Shown: in pieces, positions 53,366 through 58,579 of the stretch
How positions within the stretch are numbered: the stretch's first letter is position 1
Layout of the letters: each line of letters begins with the position of its first letter
Origin: Lachnospiraceae bacterium
GTDB taxonomy: Bacteria; Bacillota; Clostridia; Lachnospirales; Lachnospiraceae
Reading direction: 5' to 3'
Assembly: GCA_024699325.1 (NCBI GenBank)
Contig: JAILPS010000006.1
Span: forward strand, 20,419-84,418
DNA length: 64,000 nt
The notes under the pieces: model-generated
Told to the model about the DNA's origin: nothing
What the model saw: only the letters and a program-made list of their open reading frames with translations
Databases searched by the model: none
Made by a program: the position numbers and the translations under genes

Positions 53366-54022
53366 ATGGTTAGAACAGTACTTTTTGATTTGGACGGAAC
53401 ACTTATCGACACGGAGAAATACTACAGACGCTGCTGGCCCATGGCGCTTAAGCATTTTGGCTATGACATGAGCGATGAGCAGGCGCTGTCCATGAGGAGT
53501 CTCGGAAGGCCGTTTGCGCCTAAGCATCTTAAGGAAATGTTTGGCGAGGATATCGACTACATAAGCGTTCGCGACTACAGAAAAATCCTCATGAACGAAA
53601 TGCTTGAAAACGACGGAATAGAGCTTAAAAGCGGGGCGCTTAAGCTTCTCACATGGCTTAGGGATAACGGCTACAGGGCGGGAGTTGCCACCGCGACGGA
53701 CCTTATAAGGACAGAGAAATACCTTCGTGAGGTTGAAATATTTGACTATTTCACGGACATAATAAGCGCCACACAGGTGGCAGAGGGCAAGCCAAGCCCT
53801 GACATATATCTGTATGCCTGTGAAAAACTTGGCGTCACTCCTGGGGAAGTGATCGCCGTGGAGGATTCTCCAAACGGCGTGCTAAGCGCCTACAGGGCGG
53901 GCTGCAAGGTCGTCATGGTGCCTGACCAGACGGAGCCTGACGAGGAGCTCAAAAAACTGCTGTTTGCAAGGCTTGAAACCCTGGACGAGTTGATAACACT
54001 TCTTGCAAATCAAAATATATAA
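53366..54022 (+). CDS. HAD-family phosphatase (beta-phosphoglucomutase-like subfamily)
   Basis: 218 aa with VLFDLDGTLIDTE motif I and the EDSPNG motif. Confidence 0.85.
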   Translation: MVRTVLFDLDGTLIDTEKYYRRCWPMALKHFGYDMSDEQALSMRSLGRPFAPKHLKEMFGEDIDYISVRDYRKILMNEMLENDGIELKSGALKLLTWLRDNGYRAGVATATDLIRTEKYLREVEIFDYFTDIISATQVAEGKPSPDIYLYACEKLGVTPGEVIAVEDSPNGVLSAYRAGCKVVMVPDQTEPDEELKKLLFARLETLDELITLLANQNI

Positions 54023-54061
54023 GAGTATAATATAACGGAATATAACTTTCGTGAGGCGGAT

Positions 54062-55147
54062 ATGGAGACAATTGTCGTTAGAGAGAGTGAACTGGATGAC
54101 TATTATGAGGAGGCCGGAAGGATACTGAGAGAGGGAGGTTTAGTGGCATTCCCCACAGAGACCGTGTACGGGCTTGGCGGCAACGCTCTTGACCCGGAGG
54201 CCTCAGCTAAAATATACGCAGCCAAGGGTCGTCCAAGCGACAACCCTCTGATTGTCCATGTGGCGGATTTTGCTGATGTGGCGCCCCTTGTCAGGGAGAT
54301 TACCCCTGTGGCGGATAAGCTCATGAAGAAGTTCTGGCCGGGCCCTCTTACCATAATCATGAATAAGAGCGACATAGTGCCCACGGCGACCACAGGAGGC
54401 CTTCAGAGCGTGGCAGTCAGAATGCCCGTGCACCCCGTGGCCATGAAGCTTATCAGGTGCGCAGGAGTTCCCATAGCAGCGCCAAGCGCCAACACATCCG
54501 GAAGACCAAGCCCCACGAAGGCTGAGCACGTCATCGAGGATCTGTTTGGCAGAGTGGACATGATAATGGACGGCGGAAGCGTCGGGATAGGAGTTGAATC
54601 CACCATCGTGGACGTGACGGGTGAGGTTCCAATGATTCTTCGCCCGGGCTACATCACGAAGGAAATGCTCACCGAGGCCATAGGCGATGTGACAATCGAT
54701 AAGGCGGTCGCTAAGATTAACGAGGGTCAGCTGATCACAAGCAAGGAGCCGCCGAAGGCTCCAGGCATGAAGTATCGCCACTACGCCCCGAAGGCTCCGC
54801 TTAATCTAATCTGCGGAGACGAGGAGGAGGTCGAGGCAGAGCTTAGAAAGCTCGCCGCACAGGGCAAGAGCGACGGGCTGAGAGTTGGAATCATATGCTC
54901 TGACGGGGCAGACCTTGACGGATGCGCCGACAGAGTCTATCACATAGGAAGGCGCGGGGACACAGAGACCATCGCGCACAATATTTACGATTGCTTAAGG
55001 CAGTGCGACGCCGACAAGCTCGACGTCATATACAGTGACGATTTCGGGCTTGAGAACGACGAGGCGCTGGGGTATGCTGTGCAGAACAGAATTATGAAGG
55101 CTGCGGGGGGACATGTGCTCAACCTGAAGCAGAAGGGCGATCTATGA
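54062..55147 (+). CDS. tsaC: L-threonylcarbamoyladenylate synthase, long Sua5/YwlC type
   Basis: 361 aa with FPTETVYGLGGNA, KGRPSDNPLIVH and SANTSGRPSPT motifs plus a C-terminal Sua5 domain. Confidence 0.92.
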   Translation: METIVVRESELDDYYEEAGRILREGGLVAFPTETVYGLGGNALDPEASAKIYAAKGRPSDNPLIVHVADFADVAPLVREITPVADKLMKKFWPGPLTIIMNKSDIVPTATTGGLQSVAVRMPVHPVAMKLIRCAGVPIAAPSANTSGRPSPTKAEHVIEDLFGRVDMIMDGGSVGIGVESTIVDVTGEVPMILRPGYITKEMLTEAIGDVTIDKAVAKINEGQLITSKEPPKAPGMKYRHYAPKAPLNLICGDEEEVEAELRKLAAQGKSDGLRVGIICSDGADLDGCADRVYHIGRRGDTETIAHNIYDCLRQCDADKLDVIYSDDFGLENDEALGYAVQNRIMKAAGGHVLNLKQKGDL

Positions 55148-55626
55148 GTCATTATAAGCGGATTTTGTTTATATGTAACGACAACACTTGCAGGAGCATT
55201 ATGGCTGAGGCCATTATGAAGAGCATCGAGAACAGCATAAGCGAGGAAAACAGGCCCAGGGTGCACTCCAGGGGCCTTGTAGTGCTGTTTAGCGAGCCGA
55301 TAAACCCCAAGGCGGTCATGGTTATGAGAAAAAACCACCTAGAGCCCGCCAAGGAGACAAGCCAGCAGTTTACGGACGCTGACTGCAAGGAGGGAACGCT
55401 GTATCTCACCATGACCGAGAGGGAGAAGAGAATGGTTGAGGAGATGGTTCCGCATCTGTCAAACCTCTACACCCTGAGGGAGTTCGTGGGCGAGGTGGGG
55501 GACATCAACGAGCCCTACGGCGGAACCGAGGAAGACTATGAGATGGTATATGAGCACATCGACCTGATGGTCAAGATGGTTGCTCAGAAAATTATAAGAT
55601 TTGGGGAACAGAAGGAGGATGTGTAA
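55144..55626 (+). CDS. Low-molecular-weight protein phosphatase (YwlE-like arginine/tyrosine phosphatase)
   Basis: 160 aa with the CX5R(S) P-loop ICNDNTCRS. The position after tsaC matches ywlC-ywlE synteny. Confidence 0.85.
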   Translation: MSHYKRILFICNDNTCRSIMAEAIMKSIENSISEENRPRVHSRGLVVLFSEPINPKAVMVMRKNHLEPAKETSQQFTDADCKEGTLYLTMTEREKRMVEEMVPHLSNLYTLREFVGEVGDINEPYGGTEEDYEMVYEHIDLMVKMVAQKIIRFGEQKEDV

Positions 55627-56066
55627 TGATAGCGATAGGAAGTGACCACGGCGGATTCGCACTTAAGGAGGTTGTGGCGAAGCATTTGAAGGAGTTGGGA
55701 CTTGACTATGTGGACTGCGGCTGCTACGACATTTCAAGCGTGGATTATCCTGTGTACGCACAGGCGGTTGCAAGAGAGATACAGTCAGGCAAATGTGACA
55801 GAGGAATACTGGTGTGCAGCACGGGAATAGGAATCTCCATGGCTGCCAACAAGTGCACAGGCATAAGAGCTGCTCTTTGCTCAGAGCCATACAGTGCCAA
55901 GATGACCAGACTTCACAACGATGCCAATGTTTTGTGCATGGGCGGACTGGTTGTGGGGGACAACTTAGCGCTCGAGATAGTTGACACATTTTTAAACACA
56001 GAGTTTTCAGGCGAGGCCAGACATCAGAGAAGAATTGATCTGATCGAGTCAGGCAAGCTTGTGTAA
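55626..56066 (+). CDS. rpiB: Ribose-5-phosphate isomerase B
   Basis: 146 aa with IAIGSDHGG and the CSTGIGISMAANK motif. Confidence 0.93.
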   Translation: MIAIGSDHGGFALKEVVAKHLKELGLDYVDCGCYDISSVDYPVYAQAVAREIQSGKCDRGILVCSTGIGISMAANKCTGIRAALCSEPYSAKMTRLHNDANVLCMGGLVVGDNLALEIVDTFLNTEFSGEARHQRRIDLIESGKLV

Positions 56067-56089
56067 GATGTTTTATGGGGGATAAAACT

Positions 56090-56278
56090 ATGAGCAGGGG
56101 TACAGGATTTGGAATACTTGGCGTGATAGTTTTGATTATCATGCTGGCGCTGGGGTCATGCGGCGTTAACACCGACAGGGGAATAGACAGGACAGGTGCA
56201 GGCGACTATGTTGACTACTACGGCTGCCCGAACTCCAGGAGAGTCAAGAAGCTCAACCTGGCAAAAAAGAAGAGATAA
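56090..56278 (+). CDS. Small lipobox peptide A (62 aa), candidate precursor/substrate of the adjacent radical SAM enzyme
   Basis: The track ORF starts at 56075. ATG 56090 follows GGGGGAT. The sequence is MSRGTGFGILGVIVLIIMLALGSCGVNTDRGIDRTGAGDYVDYYGCPNSRRVKKLNLAKKKR. It has a signal peptide with an LGSC lipobox and a C-terminal module shared with peptide B. Confidence 0.65.
   Translation: MSRGTGFGILGVIVLIIMLALGSCGVNTDRGIDRTGAGDYVDYYGCPNSRRVKKLNLAKKKR
56215..56278 (+). repeat. Direct repeat copy 1 (3' end of peptide A gene)
   Basis: It shares an identical 21-mer, CTACTACGGCTGCCCGAACTC, with 57974-57994. The remainder is about 75 percent identical. Confidence 0.8.
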
Positions 56279-56281
56279 TCT

Positions 56282-57859
56282 ATGGTTAGAGAAGTGACAC
56301 CAGATCTTAGAATTCTGCTCGTGGAGGTCACGCAGAAGTGCAATGCATCCTGCGACCACTGCGGAAGCAGATGTGATATCCATAGCGCGGAGGTTTTGAC
56401 AGCCGAGGATATTTTGGGAGTTTTTCGAGATGTCAGGGACAATATAGGGACCGATGTCATGATTAATATCACAGGCGGCGAGCCCCTTATGAGGCGTGAC
56501 CTGTTTGATATTATGGGCCAGGCCCACGACATGGGATTTGACTGGGGGATGGTCACCAACGGCTCCATGATTGACGACAACATCATAGAGAAGATGCGTA
56601 GTGCCGGCATGAGGACCATAACGATTAGTCTTGACGGTCTGGCGCACACACACGAGACCATCAGACATCTTCCGGGGTCTTTTGAGCGCATTATGAAGTC
56701 CCTTAAGAAGCTTAAGGATGCGGCGTTTTTAGACTGTGTGCAGGTGACATTTACATCAAACAGGAAGAATTACAGGGAGTTTCCTAAGCTCTACGAGAGG
56801 CTTGAGCAGATCGGAATAGATTCTGTGAGGACCAGCATCATAGACCCTATCGGAAGGGCTTGCGATCACAGTGAGCTACTCATGGGGCGCGAGGAGATAC
56901 GCTTCATGATGGATTTCGCCAACCGTGTGAACGCGGCTGGAAGGATGCCTGTCATCTGGGGCTGTCCGCATTTTCTGGGAGATAAGCTTGAAAACAGGCA
57001 CTTCTTCTGCTTTGCGGGGATATATGCGGCGAGCATTCTCTATAACGGAGACATATTTGTGTGTCCGAATGTCCCCAGAAGACCTGAGCTTATTCAGGGC
57101 AATATTAAGACCGAGCGCTTCAGCGAGGTCTGGAAAAACGGCTATGATTACTTTAGACACAGAGTGCTTCCCGAGAAATGTGAGACTTGTAAATACCGCG
57201 ACGACTGCGCGGGCGACAGCCTCCACACATTTGACTTTGACAGGAAAGCGCCAAACTTCTGCTATAAGGAAATATTTGACGTGAATATAGGAAAATACGA
57301 AAACTGGCTCAAAAAACACTACGGAAGTGTTGAGATAACAGAGATTTCGCCGGATGAGCCGGCGCCAGCCATCTACATAGAGCCTGGCGCCTATGAGGAG
57401 ATTAAGTCATACTTTCACATGGGGGTCAGACATCCCCTGAGCATGTTTGAGCAGCAGATGGGGCTTGTTGGATTTAAGGTTGACGGCGACTACATAGTCC
57501 GCTATGCATTTCCATCTGTGATTGAGGCGAAGGCGGCGGACCTTGCGGTGTTTACGCCTGGGACGCTATCGCACGCGAGGAAGCAGACGGCCATCATTAA
57601 GCGCAATGTCATGCACTCTGACTGGGCCGACATGCCTGGCAATGACAGGCTTCGCTTTTTGGGCTTCATACATTCACATCCCATGCAGGAGGAGTTGTGC
57701 TACAGCGTGGGAGACGAGATAATTCACAAAAGTCTGTATAAGAAGTTTGGGGATTATATAGGACTGTTAGTTAATCCTGAACACGATTTGATTGGCGCCT
57801 ATGTGGGCGGCGATGACATCGTTCAGGGAAATCTCAAGATTGTAAATGTGGGGGATTAA
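56282..57859 (+). CDS. Radical SAM / SPASM-like enzyme with a C-terminal JAMM/MPN-like domain
   Basis: 525 aa. The radical SAM motif is CNASCDHC (C20, C24, C27). The auxiliary-cluster Cys pattern is CX12GX4C (CFAGIYAASILYNGDIFVC) followed by CETCKYRDDC (CX2CX5C). The C-terminal ~165 aa carry FIHSHPMQEELCYSVGDE (HxH-x8-S-xx-D) and an upstream EPGAYEE Glu. Confidence 0.8.
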   Translation: MVREVTPDLRILLVEVTQKCNASCDHCGSRCDIHSAEVLTAEDILGVFRDVRDNIGTDVMINITGGEPLMRRDLFDIMGQAHDMGFDWGMVTNGSMIDDNIIEKMRSAGMRTITISLDGLAHTHETIRHLPGSFERIMKSLKKLKDAAFLDCVQVTFTSNRKNYREFPKLYERLEQIGIDSVRTSIIDPIGRACDHSELLMGREEIRFMMDFANRVNAAGRMPVIWGCPHFLGDKLENRHFFCFAGIYAASILYNGDIFVCPNVPRRPELIQGNIKTERFSEVWKNGYDYFRHRVLPEKCETCKYRDDCAGDSLHTFDFDRKAPNFCYKEIFDVNIGKYENWLKKHYGSVEITEISPDEPAPAIYIEPGAYEEIKSYFHMGVRHPLSMFEQQMGLVGFKVDGDYIVRYAFPSVIEAKAADLAVFTPGTLSHARKQTAIIKRNVMHSDWADMPGNDRLRFLGFIHSHPMQEELCYSVGDEIIHKSLYKKFGDYIGLLVNPEHDLIGAYVGGDDIVQGNLKIVNVGD

Positions 57860-57860
57860 T

Positions 57861-58037
57861 ATGAAGAGACATAAGGGGATTATTCTTGCGGTTATGCTGT
57901 TGCTTGCAAGCCTTGCGCTTGGAGCATGTAATTTCACAAGTGTATTTGACGGAGGGGGAGGCGAGTATATGAGCTACTACGGCTGCCCGAACTCTAAGAA
58001 GGTTAAGAAGCTTAACCTTAAGAAGAATAAGAGATAG
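57861..58037 (+). CDS. Small lipobox peptide B (58 aa), paralog of peptide A
   Basis: The track ORF starts at 57846. ATG 57861 follows GGGGGAT and lies 1 nt after the enzyme's stop. The sequence is [58 protein letters not shown]. Confidence 0.65.
57974..58037 (+). repeat. Direct repeat copy 2 (3' end of peptide B gene)
   Basis: See copy 1. The differences are mostly synonymous or R/K exchanges. Confidence 0.8.
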
Positions 58038-58048
58038 AGAGGTGTGCG

Positions 58049-58534
58049 ATGGCTAAGAGAAAGGATTATATCAGCTGGGATGAATATTTTATGGGGGTTG
58101 CTGAGCTGTCCGCGAGGAGAAGCAAGGACCCTGGAACACAGGTGGGAGCCTGTATTGTGAGCCCGTCTAACAAGATTATATCCATGGGCTACAACGGTTT
58201 TCCGATGGGCTGCTCTGACGATGAATTCCCCTGGGAGAGGGACGGAGAGGATCCGTTTGACACGAAGTACACATATGTGACTCACGCTGAGATGAACGCA
58301 ATCCTTAACAACCGCACCTCCAGCCTTGAGGGCTGCAGGCTGTATGTGACGCTGTTTCCATGTAACGAATGTGCGAAGGCTGTCATCCAGTCAGGCATCA
58401 AGGAGGTAATCTACGCCTCCGACAAATACGCCCAGACAAGCGCCGTGAAGGCGAGCAAGAGAATGTTTGACGCCGCGGGCGTTAAATACACGCCATACGA
58501 GGGCAGCAACAAGGAAATACTGCTTGTTCTCTAA
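58049..58534 (+). CDS. comEB: dCMP deaminase (ComEB-type)
   Basis: 161 aa with the zinc motifs HAEMNA and PCNECAK. Confidence 0.9.
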
Positions 58535-58550
58535 TTTTTGGCTGTTTTGC

Positions 58551-58579
58551 TTGACTGCGGTTTTAATAACTGATATTAT
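58551..58579 (+). promoter_or_regulatory. Promoter TTGACT-N17-TATTAT upstream of the malic enzyme gene
   Basis: -35 at 58551-58556 and -10 at 58574-58579. Confidence 0.45.

Follow-up and report, generated by a model that had tools for sequence, protein, structure and literature searches.

How might a short peptide that begins with a lipoprotein-type signal be handled by a radical SAM enzyme, and how would it leave the cell, when no exporter is encoded beside it? The question is raised by a three-gene cassette in a 64,000-nucleotide stretch (the window) of contig JAILPS010000006.1 from a Lachnospiraceae bacterium, in which a gene for a 525-residue radical SAM/SPASM enzyme stands between pepA and pepB, two small open reading frames (ORFs) encoding peptides of 62 and 58 amino acids (Table 1). 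A preliminary description of this locus gave coordinates that cover pepA, with pepB lying outside them. Peptide maturation by radical SAM/SPASM enzymes takes an uncharacterised form here, which combines a fused JAMM domain, proposed recognition through a C-terminal Tyr-Gly-Cys-Pro (YGCP) motif and modular N-terminal addresses. No curated family was found for it, and a literature search gave no paper on a radical SAM–JAMM fusion or on YGCP peptides.

Pfam models cover only residues 14–304 of the enzyme (PF04055, expectation value (E) 4.9e-23; PF13186, E 3.5e-8), yet its full 525 residues can be aligned with homologues, of which 1710 were retrieved at E≤1e-10. For residues 335–525, scans of Pfam and NCBIfam at E up to 10 gave no match. 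When this segment was modelled with AlphaFold2 from 73 sequences, the model reached a predicted local distance difference test (pLDDT) score of 95.7, and the best PDB matches returned for it by Foldseek were Rpn11, a Caldiarchaeum homologue of Rpn11, BRCC36, CSN5 and AMSH (E about 5e-8, probability 1.0, TM-scores up to 0.75). E390, H464, H466, S475 and D478 are invariant among homologues, and a sequence profile pairs the HSHP...S..D stretch with the HTHPTQ...S.D stretch of AMSH/sst2; the E of 0.1 is weak, yet only JAMM proteins were matched. Between the second His and the Ser lie 8 residues, compared with 7 in the usual JAMM motif. Because the modelled MPN fold, the Foldseek matches and the invariant E/HSH/S/D motif point the same way, the enzyme is regarded as a radical SAM/SPASM–MPN+(JAMM) fusion with a predicted metalloprotease domain. 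The preliminary description had held that the cassette contains no leader peptidase gene, which is true of a separate gene but overlooks the metalloprotease-like domain fused to the radical SAM protein itself.

In the other half of the enzyme, the three cysteines of the radical SAM cluster motif (C20, C24 and C27) and seven C-terminal cysteines are invariant in the homologue alignment (A1), and the conserved cysteines of the SPASM region are found at positions 228, 243, 261, 300, 303, 309 and 327, with C228 and C327 just beyond the Pfam span. The best-scoring curated family for this part is TIGR04133 (243.2 bits, E 3.6e-72, residues 8–328), but membership was rejected since the score falls under the curated cutoff of 425 bits; in addition, the TIGR04133 model, 350 positions long, lacks a JAMM domain. 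Its short name, rSAM_w_lipo, suggests a radical SAM enzyme noticed beside a lipoprotein. No paper describing the TIGR04133 family was found in the literature search, and a literature match to TIGR04134 was set aside as unrelated, as it concerns the C-terminal domain of the type IX secretion system. The characterised families scoring next are AhbD, WgkB, NirJ, nif11-class maturase 3, MftC and PqqE, and these scores do not settle the radical SAM chemistry. NCBIfam and Pfam gave no match to a PqqD-like domain or RRE (the recognition element of RiPPs, peptides synthesised ribosomally and modified post-translationally) in the enzyme, which also has no N-terminal extension of the RRE type, its CxxxCxxC motif starting at residue 20 and its radical SAM core at about residue 10.

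The partners of the enzyme were surveyed in 160 related loci from genomes and metagenomes; for the metagenome contigs, a single-protein scan gave nothing and the loci were obtained with an alignment-based scan. An ORF ending in [Y/L/M/H]YGCP plus a tail was found close to the enzyme in 66 of the 68 loci whose enzyme bears the JAMM domain and in none of the 54 loci with JAMM-less relatives, so that the YGCP tag and the JAMM domain co-occur strictly. YGCP is the sole invariant element of the substrates across all clades, which comprise bacteria and an archaeon, and the tails that follow it differ by clade, being basic in some and acidic in others. In pepA, the 15 residues after YGCP consist of NS and a 13-residue tail, and the last 15 residues of pepA and of pepB each contain eight Lys or Arg, as the preliminary description had said of an extremely basic tail. 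When neighbouring genes were clustered across the 47 loci with a full-length enzyme, only the enzyme and the peptides proved to be conserved; the shared set includes neither an ABC transporter nor a second protease, and neither an immunity gene nor a regulator, and the absence of an ABC exporter from the cassette, reported earlier, is therefore general to them. One enzyme ORF, in an Oribacterium metagenome-assembled genome (MAG; locus L036 4001-5965, protein P0038, 670 amino acids), exceeds the usual length by about 150 residues, aligns over only 58% of the query and has no YGCP ORF nearby; it may carry an insertion or be a decaying copy.

The N-termini of pepA and pepB were assessed with two independent lipoprotein-signal patterns, a rule of the PROSITE PS51257 type and the G+LPP pattern, and each peptide matches both. 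The n-region holds one Lys or Arg in pepA (R3) and three in pepB (K2, R3 and K5), with one to four in members of the window clade, and the uncharged h-region extends over 20 and 17 residues, respectively, both inside the span of about 7–22 expected of such signals, with highest 15-residue Kyte–Doolittle means of 3.15 and 2.81. Both lipoboxes, L-G-S-C24 in pepA and L-G-A-C23 in pepB, conform to [LVI][ASTVIG][GAS]-C and have their Cys within the range allowed for it, positions 15–35, and a cut before the Cys would leave products of 39 and 36 amino acids, in which a Gly/Asp-rich linker with a net charge of -2 precedes YYGCPNS and the basic tail. Scans of pepA and pepB against Pfam and NCBIfam at E up to 10 assigned neither to a family, pepB giving only weak lipoprotein-signal-like matches. 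Shuffled versions of the two peptides match the patterns in 0.16% of trials, and among 1033 ATG-started ORF variants read in all six frames of the window, the only unrelated ORFs to match both patterns are two antisense ones; owing to these low frequencies, the agreement of pepA and pepB lies well beyond chance. Taken together, the sequences support the view that their N-termini are lipoprotein-type signals and not classical RiPP leaders. The observations made in the preliminary description (basic n-region, hydrophobic core, lipobox, Cys-started products, Gly/Asp-rich middle and YYGCPNS, in both peptides) are confirmed apart from that on the peptidase, and its interpretation is partly supported.

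Short ORFs are easily over-called, and together with the two antisense matches this could suggest that pepA and pepB are unexpressed artefacts of annotation in which lipobox-like strings arose by coincidence. Against this stand the recurrence of homologous peptides beside the enzyme, the GGGGGA Shine-Dalgarno sites found 5–7 nucleotides 5' of each peptide ORF, the invariance of YGCP across bacteria and an archaeon, and the 453 peptide relatives retrieved at E≤1 from the protein database by a profile built solely from the region after the lipobox Cys, a search thus unbiased as to the signal. In view of this conservation, coincidence is effectively refuted and retains next to no probability.

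The types of N-terminus found on the substrates track the enzyme tree. Lipoprotein signals belong to the window clade, a single monophyletic enzyme clade of Lachnospiraceae. Its sister clade, from rumen Clostridia, has N-termini of about 20 residues that are rich in Trp, Phe and Arg and strongly amphipathic, with a mean hydrophobic moment of 0.55 versus 0.34±0.12 for shuffled sequences. Loci of the sister clade (L013, L014, L017, L018, L021, L040 and L069) carry two to five tandem precursors downstream of the enzyme, often three to five, with divergent N-termini and near-identical [C/D]YYGCPNS-KKAxKLQL cores. Ruminococcus and Acutalibacteraceae loci encode substrates of about 190 amino acids with a zinc ribbon at the start; substrates of about 150–200 amino acids that open with a CxxC...CxxC zinc ribbon, continue with a middle domain and end in CLYGCP and an acidic tail occur in L034-L041 (e.g. 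L037 2935-3522), L114 713-1168 and L115 897-1511, and their middle domain may also be ubiquitin-like. In the human-gut clade (L103-L113, L116, L126, L143 and L149, e.g. L109 1026-1451; proteins P0121-P0240), the substrates are about 140 amino acids long, and residues 1–90 were modelled at pLDDT 80–89 with the topology ββαββ(α)β. The best PDB matches of this domain are ubiquitin and ubiquitin-like domains (E 3e-5, target-normalised TM-scores 0.7–0.8), from which a ubiquitin-like beta-grasp domain is predicted; behind it come a proline-rich linker, LYGCP, which is invariant, and a tail of acidic character. Two Methanocorpusculum MAGs (L042 3465-3993 and L046 3483-3993) encode the enzyme with two YGCP proteins, one anchored by a transmembrane segment and one soluble, which suggests a transfer between gut bacteria and a methanogen, mis-binning being a further possibility.

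Since the N-termini are freely swapped while YGCP and a clade-specific tail are kept, and since the enzyme has no N-terminal RRE-type domain, recognition by the enzyme must, to judge from these sequences, lie in the C-terminal YGCP motif and tail. The earlier proposal that lipoprotein signals take the place of RiPP leaders can thus be retained in part: the signals are of the lipoprotein type and are conserved in the window clade, but they would not replace a leader in recognition by the enzyme.

How far the lipobox itself is conserved had been left to a comparison of homologues. A lipobox Cys is present at positions 20–28 in 20 of the 22 peptides tabulated from window-clade loci, although their signal sequences have diverged; 19 of the 22 fit the simple lipobox pattern, and the peptide of L033 (A-Y-S-C) passes PS51257. 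A wider census was taken of the best 120 of the 453 relatives, grouped by tail type. The tail type of the window, NSxx[V/I]xxL, accounts for 98 of these 120, and 69 of the 98 have a canonical lipobox; the others comprise about 8 with a non-canonical Cys context (G-M-R-M-C, V-M-C or Y-R-C), about 13 with an N-terminal hydrophobic helix and no Cys, and about 7 with an amphipathic or hydrophilic N-terminus. The tail type NSxx[A/T]xxL accounts for a further 21, with a lipobox in 1, and the one peptide outside both patterns has a lipobox. One relative, P0256, is named 'lipoprotein' by NCBI. In sister and outgroup clades the lipobox is essentially absent. Homologues without the lipobox Cys had been named beforehand as a finding that would refute the lipoprotein reading, and this condition applies in part. 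The Cys is accordingly not invariant among homologues at large, and the lipobox appears clearly to be under selection in the lineage of the window, yet is neither invariant nor family-defining. In a subgroup of close relatives (P0262, P0263, P0267, P0295, P0317 and P0319), the hydrophobic helix leads into a conserved non-canonical context, ...LAGAxGMRMC-G, in which position -2 is an Arg.

The members with a Cys-less helix or a non-canonical Cys invite a different view of these N-termini, in which they are generic membrane tethers, either anchors or in-plane helices, the Cys is frequent but dispensable, many members are left unprocessed by signal peptidase II, and the modified C-terminal motif acts at the membrane, possibly on its cytoplasmic side. 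The strongly amphipathic N-termini of the sister clade would suit such a role, and by the positive-inside rule, which is general knowledge, a tail with eight Lys or Arg would be expected to favour cytoplasmic retention. This view is nevertheless thought unlikely. The window peptides and most members of their clade have a canonical lipobox at the canonical distance, with a small residue at -1 and acidic or neutral residues after the Cys, and clades with a ubiquitin-like or hydrophilic N-terminus have no membrane element at all. Furthermore, Lgt and Lsp act only on an outward-facing Cys, so that where the lipobox has been kept the C-terminal side should be translocated.

It is instead proposed that pepA and pepB are substrates of a bifunctional enzyme, which would recognise them through the C-terminus and trim the tail, the N-terminus serving as an address. 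This model is given a little under an even chance of being correct as a whole, and within it we infer the order of the steps, the cleavage site, the chemistry, and the actual export and lipidation. The enzyme would read [Y/L]-Y-G-C-P and the clade-specific tail, which is basic in the window, and not an N-terminal leader. In a first step, in the cytoplasm, the radical SAM/SPASM half would modify the YGCP motif, the best guess being a Cys- or Tyr-centred cross-link or oxidation. The JAMM half would then remove the tail, most likely at or beside the Gly-Cys bond; this site is proposed because JAMM enzymes cut after a C-terminal Gly and because some clades carry the tag on a ubiquitin-like domain. 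The N-terminal part would act as an interchangeable address label, in the Lachnospiraceae clade of the window as a type II signal peptide, by which Sec would export the trimmed product, Lgt would attach a lipid to Cys24 or Cys23, and signal peptidase II would make the cut. The end product would be an acidic lipopeptide of about 20–25 residues with a modified YYG end on the outer face of the membrane, and loss of the tail with its eight Lys or Arg before export would ease translocation. The conservation of the lipobox is the basis for arguing that the attached peptide, and not the tail, is the exported part. As lipoprotein-type signals are present and no exporter is encoded in any related locus, export by the general Sec/Lgt/Lsp route after cytoplasmic modification seems the simplest reading.

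Several points weigh against this model. Among the closest peptide relatives, about 30% do without a canonical lipobox, from which it follows that lipidation is not essential to the system. The N-termini of the sister clade are amphipathic and carry no export signal, which fits poorly with an extracytoplasmic action of the whole family. The signature motifs of lspA and lgt are absent from the 64-kb window, and the lipoprotein machinery of the host is thus assumed. Finally, the tail is strongly conserved and could be what the system produces, and not a discarded recognition element.

The last of these points leads to classical RiPP logic, by which the hydrophobic segment and the linker form a disposable leader or carrier and the JAMM domain, cutting between these and the conserved C-terminal 25 or so residues, releases a modified cationic C-terminal peptide, the lipobox being irrelevant to the product or merely parking the precursor at the membrane. 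The C-terminal 25 or so residues are indeed by far the best conserved, next to variable N-termini, the maturase has a protease domain fused to it, and the arrays of up to five tandem precursors in the sister clade, with the same core and differing N-termini, resemble multi-precursor RiPP loci. A canonical lipobox in about 70% of clade members would, however, make little sense if the peptide were cut off before export, and the part corresponding to the leader is in other clades a zinc ribbon or a ubiquitin-like domain with a fold of its own, which is not what a leader meant to be discarded looks like. Tails are basic in one clade and acidic in another, and such a change looks more like co-evolving recognition than like a bioactive core, and no exporter or immunity gene was found among the 47 loci. 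A RiPP of the classical kind is therefore considered improbable here.

The proposed division of labour can be set against what is known of JAMM enzymes. A ubiquitin-like beta-grasp domain is the classical type of JAMM substrate, and Mec+ (CysO-Cys) and QbsD (QbsE-GG-CF) cut Gly-Cys bonds. In two reports, prokaryotic JAMM enzymes, including HvJAMM1 acting on SAMP and DRJAMM acting on MoaD-MoaE, are described as cleaving after the C-terminal Gly of ubiquitin-like proteins (PMC4443979, PMC8832034). The domain of the window enzyme shares its fold and its E-HxH-S-D zinc site with the JAMM/MPN+ proteins Rpn11, AMSH, HvJAMM1, DRJAMM, QbsD and Mec+, and some clades place the YGCP tag behind a domain of the ubiquitin-like beta-grasp type, as would suit a JAMM substrate. 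It differs from them in being fused to a radical SAM/SPASM enzyme, in its longer zinc-site spacer, and in that no E1-like or E2-like gene is conserved near the enzyme in the 47 clustered loci. Equally, a prokaryotic ubiquitin-like conjugation or sulfur-carrier system does not describe the locus in the window, since the ubiquitin-like domain is confined to distant clades and is not part of the window substrates.

These likenesses permit a bolder interpretation, in which YGCP is a portable C-terminal tag. The radical SAM half would activate or cross-link the Tyr-Gly-Cys-Pro junction and the JAMM half would expose a modified C-terminal Gly, making the system a radical-SAM-driven, E1-independent relative of ubiquitin-like processing. 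Zinc ribbons, amphipathic helices and ubiquitin-like domains could all serve as cargo, and in the window this part would be played by a lipoprotein signal, through which the modified end would come to lie on the cell surface. This is regarded as quite a long shot.

For the modification of a peptide before its export, as the proposed bifunctional enzyme would require, the preliminary description had named QhpC/QhpD as the closest analogy. QhpD is a cytoplasmic radical SAM/SPASM enzyme that modifies Cys residues of QhpC, a small polypeptide (the gamma subunit of quinohemoprotein amine dehydrogenase) whose eventual place of work is outside the cytoplasm; a leader of 28 residues on QhpC is required for QhpD binding, this leader is removed by QhpE, a separate subtilisin-like protease, and the product is translocated by the ABC exporter QhpF (PMC7876137). 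Cytoplasmic radical SAM modification before export would be common to both systems, export being only proposed for the window peptides, whereas a leader of this kind, a protease encoded apart from the maturase and a gene for an exporter are all missing in the window. With its leader, QhpE protease and QhpF exporter, the Qhp system was consequently rejected as a precedent for a Sec/Lsp route and does not stand as the nearest analogue.

By analogy, the anaerobic sulfatase-maturating enzyme (anSME) appears to be the clearest precedent for a logic of modification before export, and a better one than QhpC/QhpD. It is a cytoplasmic radical SAM/SPASM enzyme that recognises a short Cys-containing motif, C/S-x-P-x-R, in unfolded sulfatase pre-proteins, and its substrates, which carry Sec signals, including lipoprotein signals in Bacteroides, are modified before export. 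The systems differ in the motif, which is C-x-P-x-R for anSME and G-C-P-N-S-K/R in the window peptides, in the substrates, which are enzymes in the one case and would be peptides of 36–39 residues in the other, and in the enzymes, as anSME has no fused protease and belongs to another subfamily. A sulfatase-type motif was rejected for the window peptides, because C-P-N-S-K does not fit C-x-P-x-R, and the top 25 NCBIfam matches of the window enzyme do not include TIGR03942, the sulfatase_rSAM model.

MftC and PqqE, of the mycofactocin and pyrroloquinoline quinone (PQQ) pathways, are both among the families that score against the window enzyme. Each is a radical SAM/SPASM enzyme whose target is an invariant Tyr-containing motif close to the C-terminus of a small peptide, and each pathway includes a peptidase step. 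In contrast to the cassette, however, those peptides lack a signal peptide, the peptidase is a protein distinct from the radical SAM enzyme, and the RRE-type chaperones MftB and PqqD, which are used there, have no counterpart here.

The fusion enzymes form an undescribed radical SAM/SPASM–JAMM family of more than 1000 members with a strictly co-occurring C-terminal YGCP tag. If the model holds, they would show how two components suffice to make a lipopeptide with a post-translational modification by way of the general secretion machinery alone, and this route would operate in abundant Clostridia of the rumen and gut. The ubiquitin-like substrates of some lineages link radical SAM peptide chemistry with ubiquitin-like/JAMM processing, two fields not previously connected. 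Experimental access should be easy, as the system offers two genes, short peptides and clear active-site mutants.

Table 1. Features of the pepA–enzyme–pepB cassette, in positions of the 64,000-nucleotide window.
Feature	Position	Strand	Description or basis
pepA Shine-Dalgarno site GGGGGA	56078-56083	+	
pepA	56090-56278	+	62-amino-acid candidate substrate peptide of pre-lipoprotein type; adjoins the enzyme gene also in related loci
pepA predicted signal peptide (residues 1-23) and lipobox Cys24 (codon 56159-56161)	56090-56161	+	L-G-S-C; PS51257-type and G+LPP matches
pepA YYGCPNS motif (residues 43-49, invariant core YGCP)	56216-56236	+	Same core in all clades
pepA basic tail (RRVKKLNLAKKKR), put forward as a 'follower' or as the segment recognised by the enzyme	56237-56275	+	Tail pattern kept within each clade
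Radical SAM/SPASM/MPN+(JAMM) fused enzyme	56282-57859	+	525 amino acids; Pfam PF04055 and PF13186
Radical SAM cluster motif C20-x3-C24-x2-C27	56339-56362	+	Invariant in the alignment
SPASM auxiliary-cluster domain (Pfam residues 243-304)	57008-57193	+	Pfam and alignment
Predicted C-terminal MPN+/JAMM metalloprotease-like domain (residues 335-525)	57284-57856	+	AlphaFold2 and Foldseek
Predicted general-base Glu390 of the JAMM domain	57449-57451	+	
Predicted JAMM zinc-site motif H464-S-H466-x8-S475-x2-D478	57671-57715	+	Invariant in 73 sequences
pepB Shine-Dalgarno site GGGGGA	57850-57855	+	
pepB	57861-58037	+	Second candidate substrate of pre-lipoprotein type, 58 amino acids
pepB lipobox L-G-A-C23	codon 57927-57929	+	
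pepB YYGCPNS motif	57975-57995	+	

The three ORFs of the cassette lie on the same strand, with 3 nucleotides between pepA and the enzyme gene and 1 nucleotide between the enzyme gene and pepB. They are surrounded by housekeeping genes of the same orientation, namely tsaC/Sua5, a low-molecular-weight phosphatase gene and rpiB upstream, and a dCMP-type deaminase gene followed by a malic enzyme gene downstream, and no promoter-like or terminator-like site of its own separates the cassette from these neighbours. The co-directional run from tsaC through the phosphatase gene, rpiB and the cassette to the deaminase gene spans positions 54003-58579 of the window; promoter-like sites were found in it at 54003 and 58551 only, with no terminator between them. 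The closest genomic relative, locus L001 from an uncultured rumen Lachnospiraceae, has an enzyme of 67% identity and identical synteny. This layout suggests that the cassette is constitutively co-expressed with housekeeping genes, rather than being a regulated antibiotic cluster.

The JAMM-less radical SAM/SPASM relatives are 42–47% identical to the window enzyme and likewise reach just 307–318 bits against TIGR04133. Downstream of them (L056 5020-5337, L057 5013-5321, L059 5062-5406, L061 5040-5363, L066 5022-5363 and L073 2171-2545) are encoded proteins of about 105–125 amino acids with an N-terminal signal peptide, repeated 'YG' motifs (e.g. DYGIQTAYG, LYGPPQEQELYGPP) and, as judged by eye, apparent C-terminal hydrophobic segments resembling transmembrane helices. 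These proteins may represent another substrate family, likewise secreted and bearing Tyr-Gly motifs.

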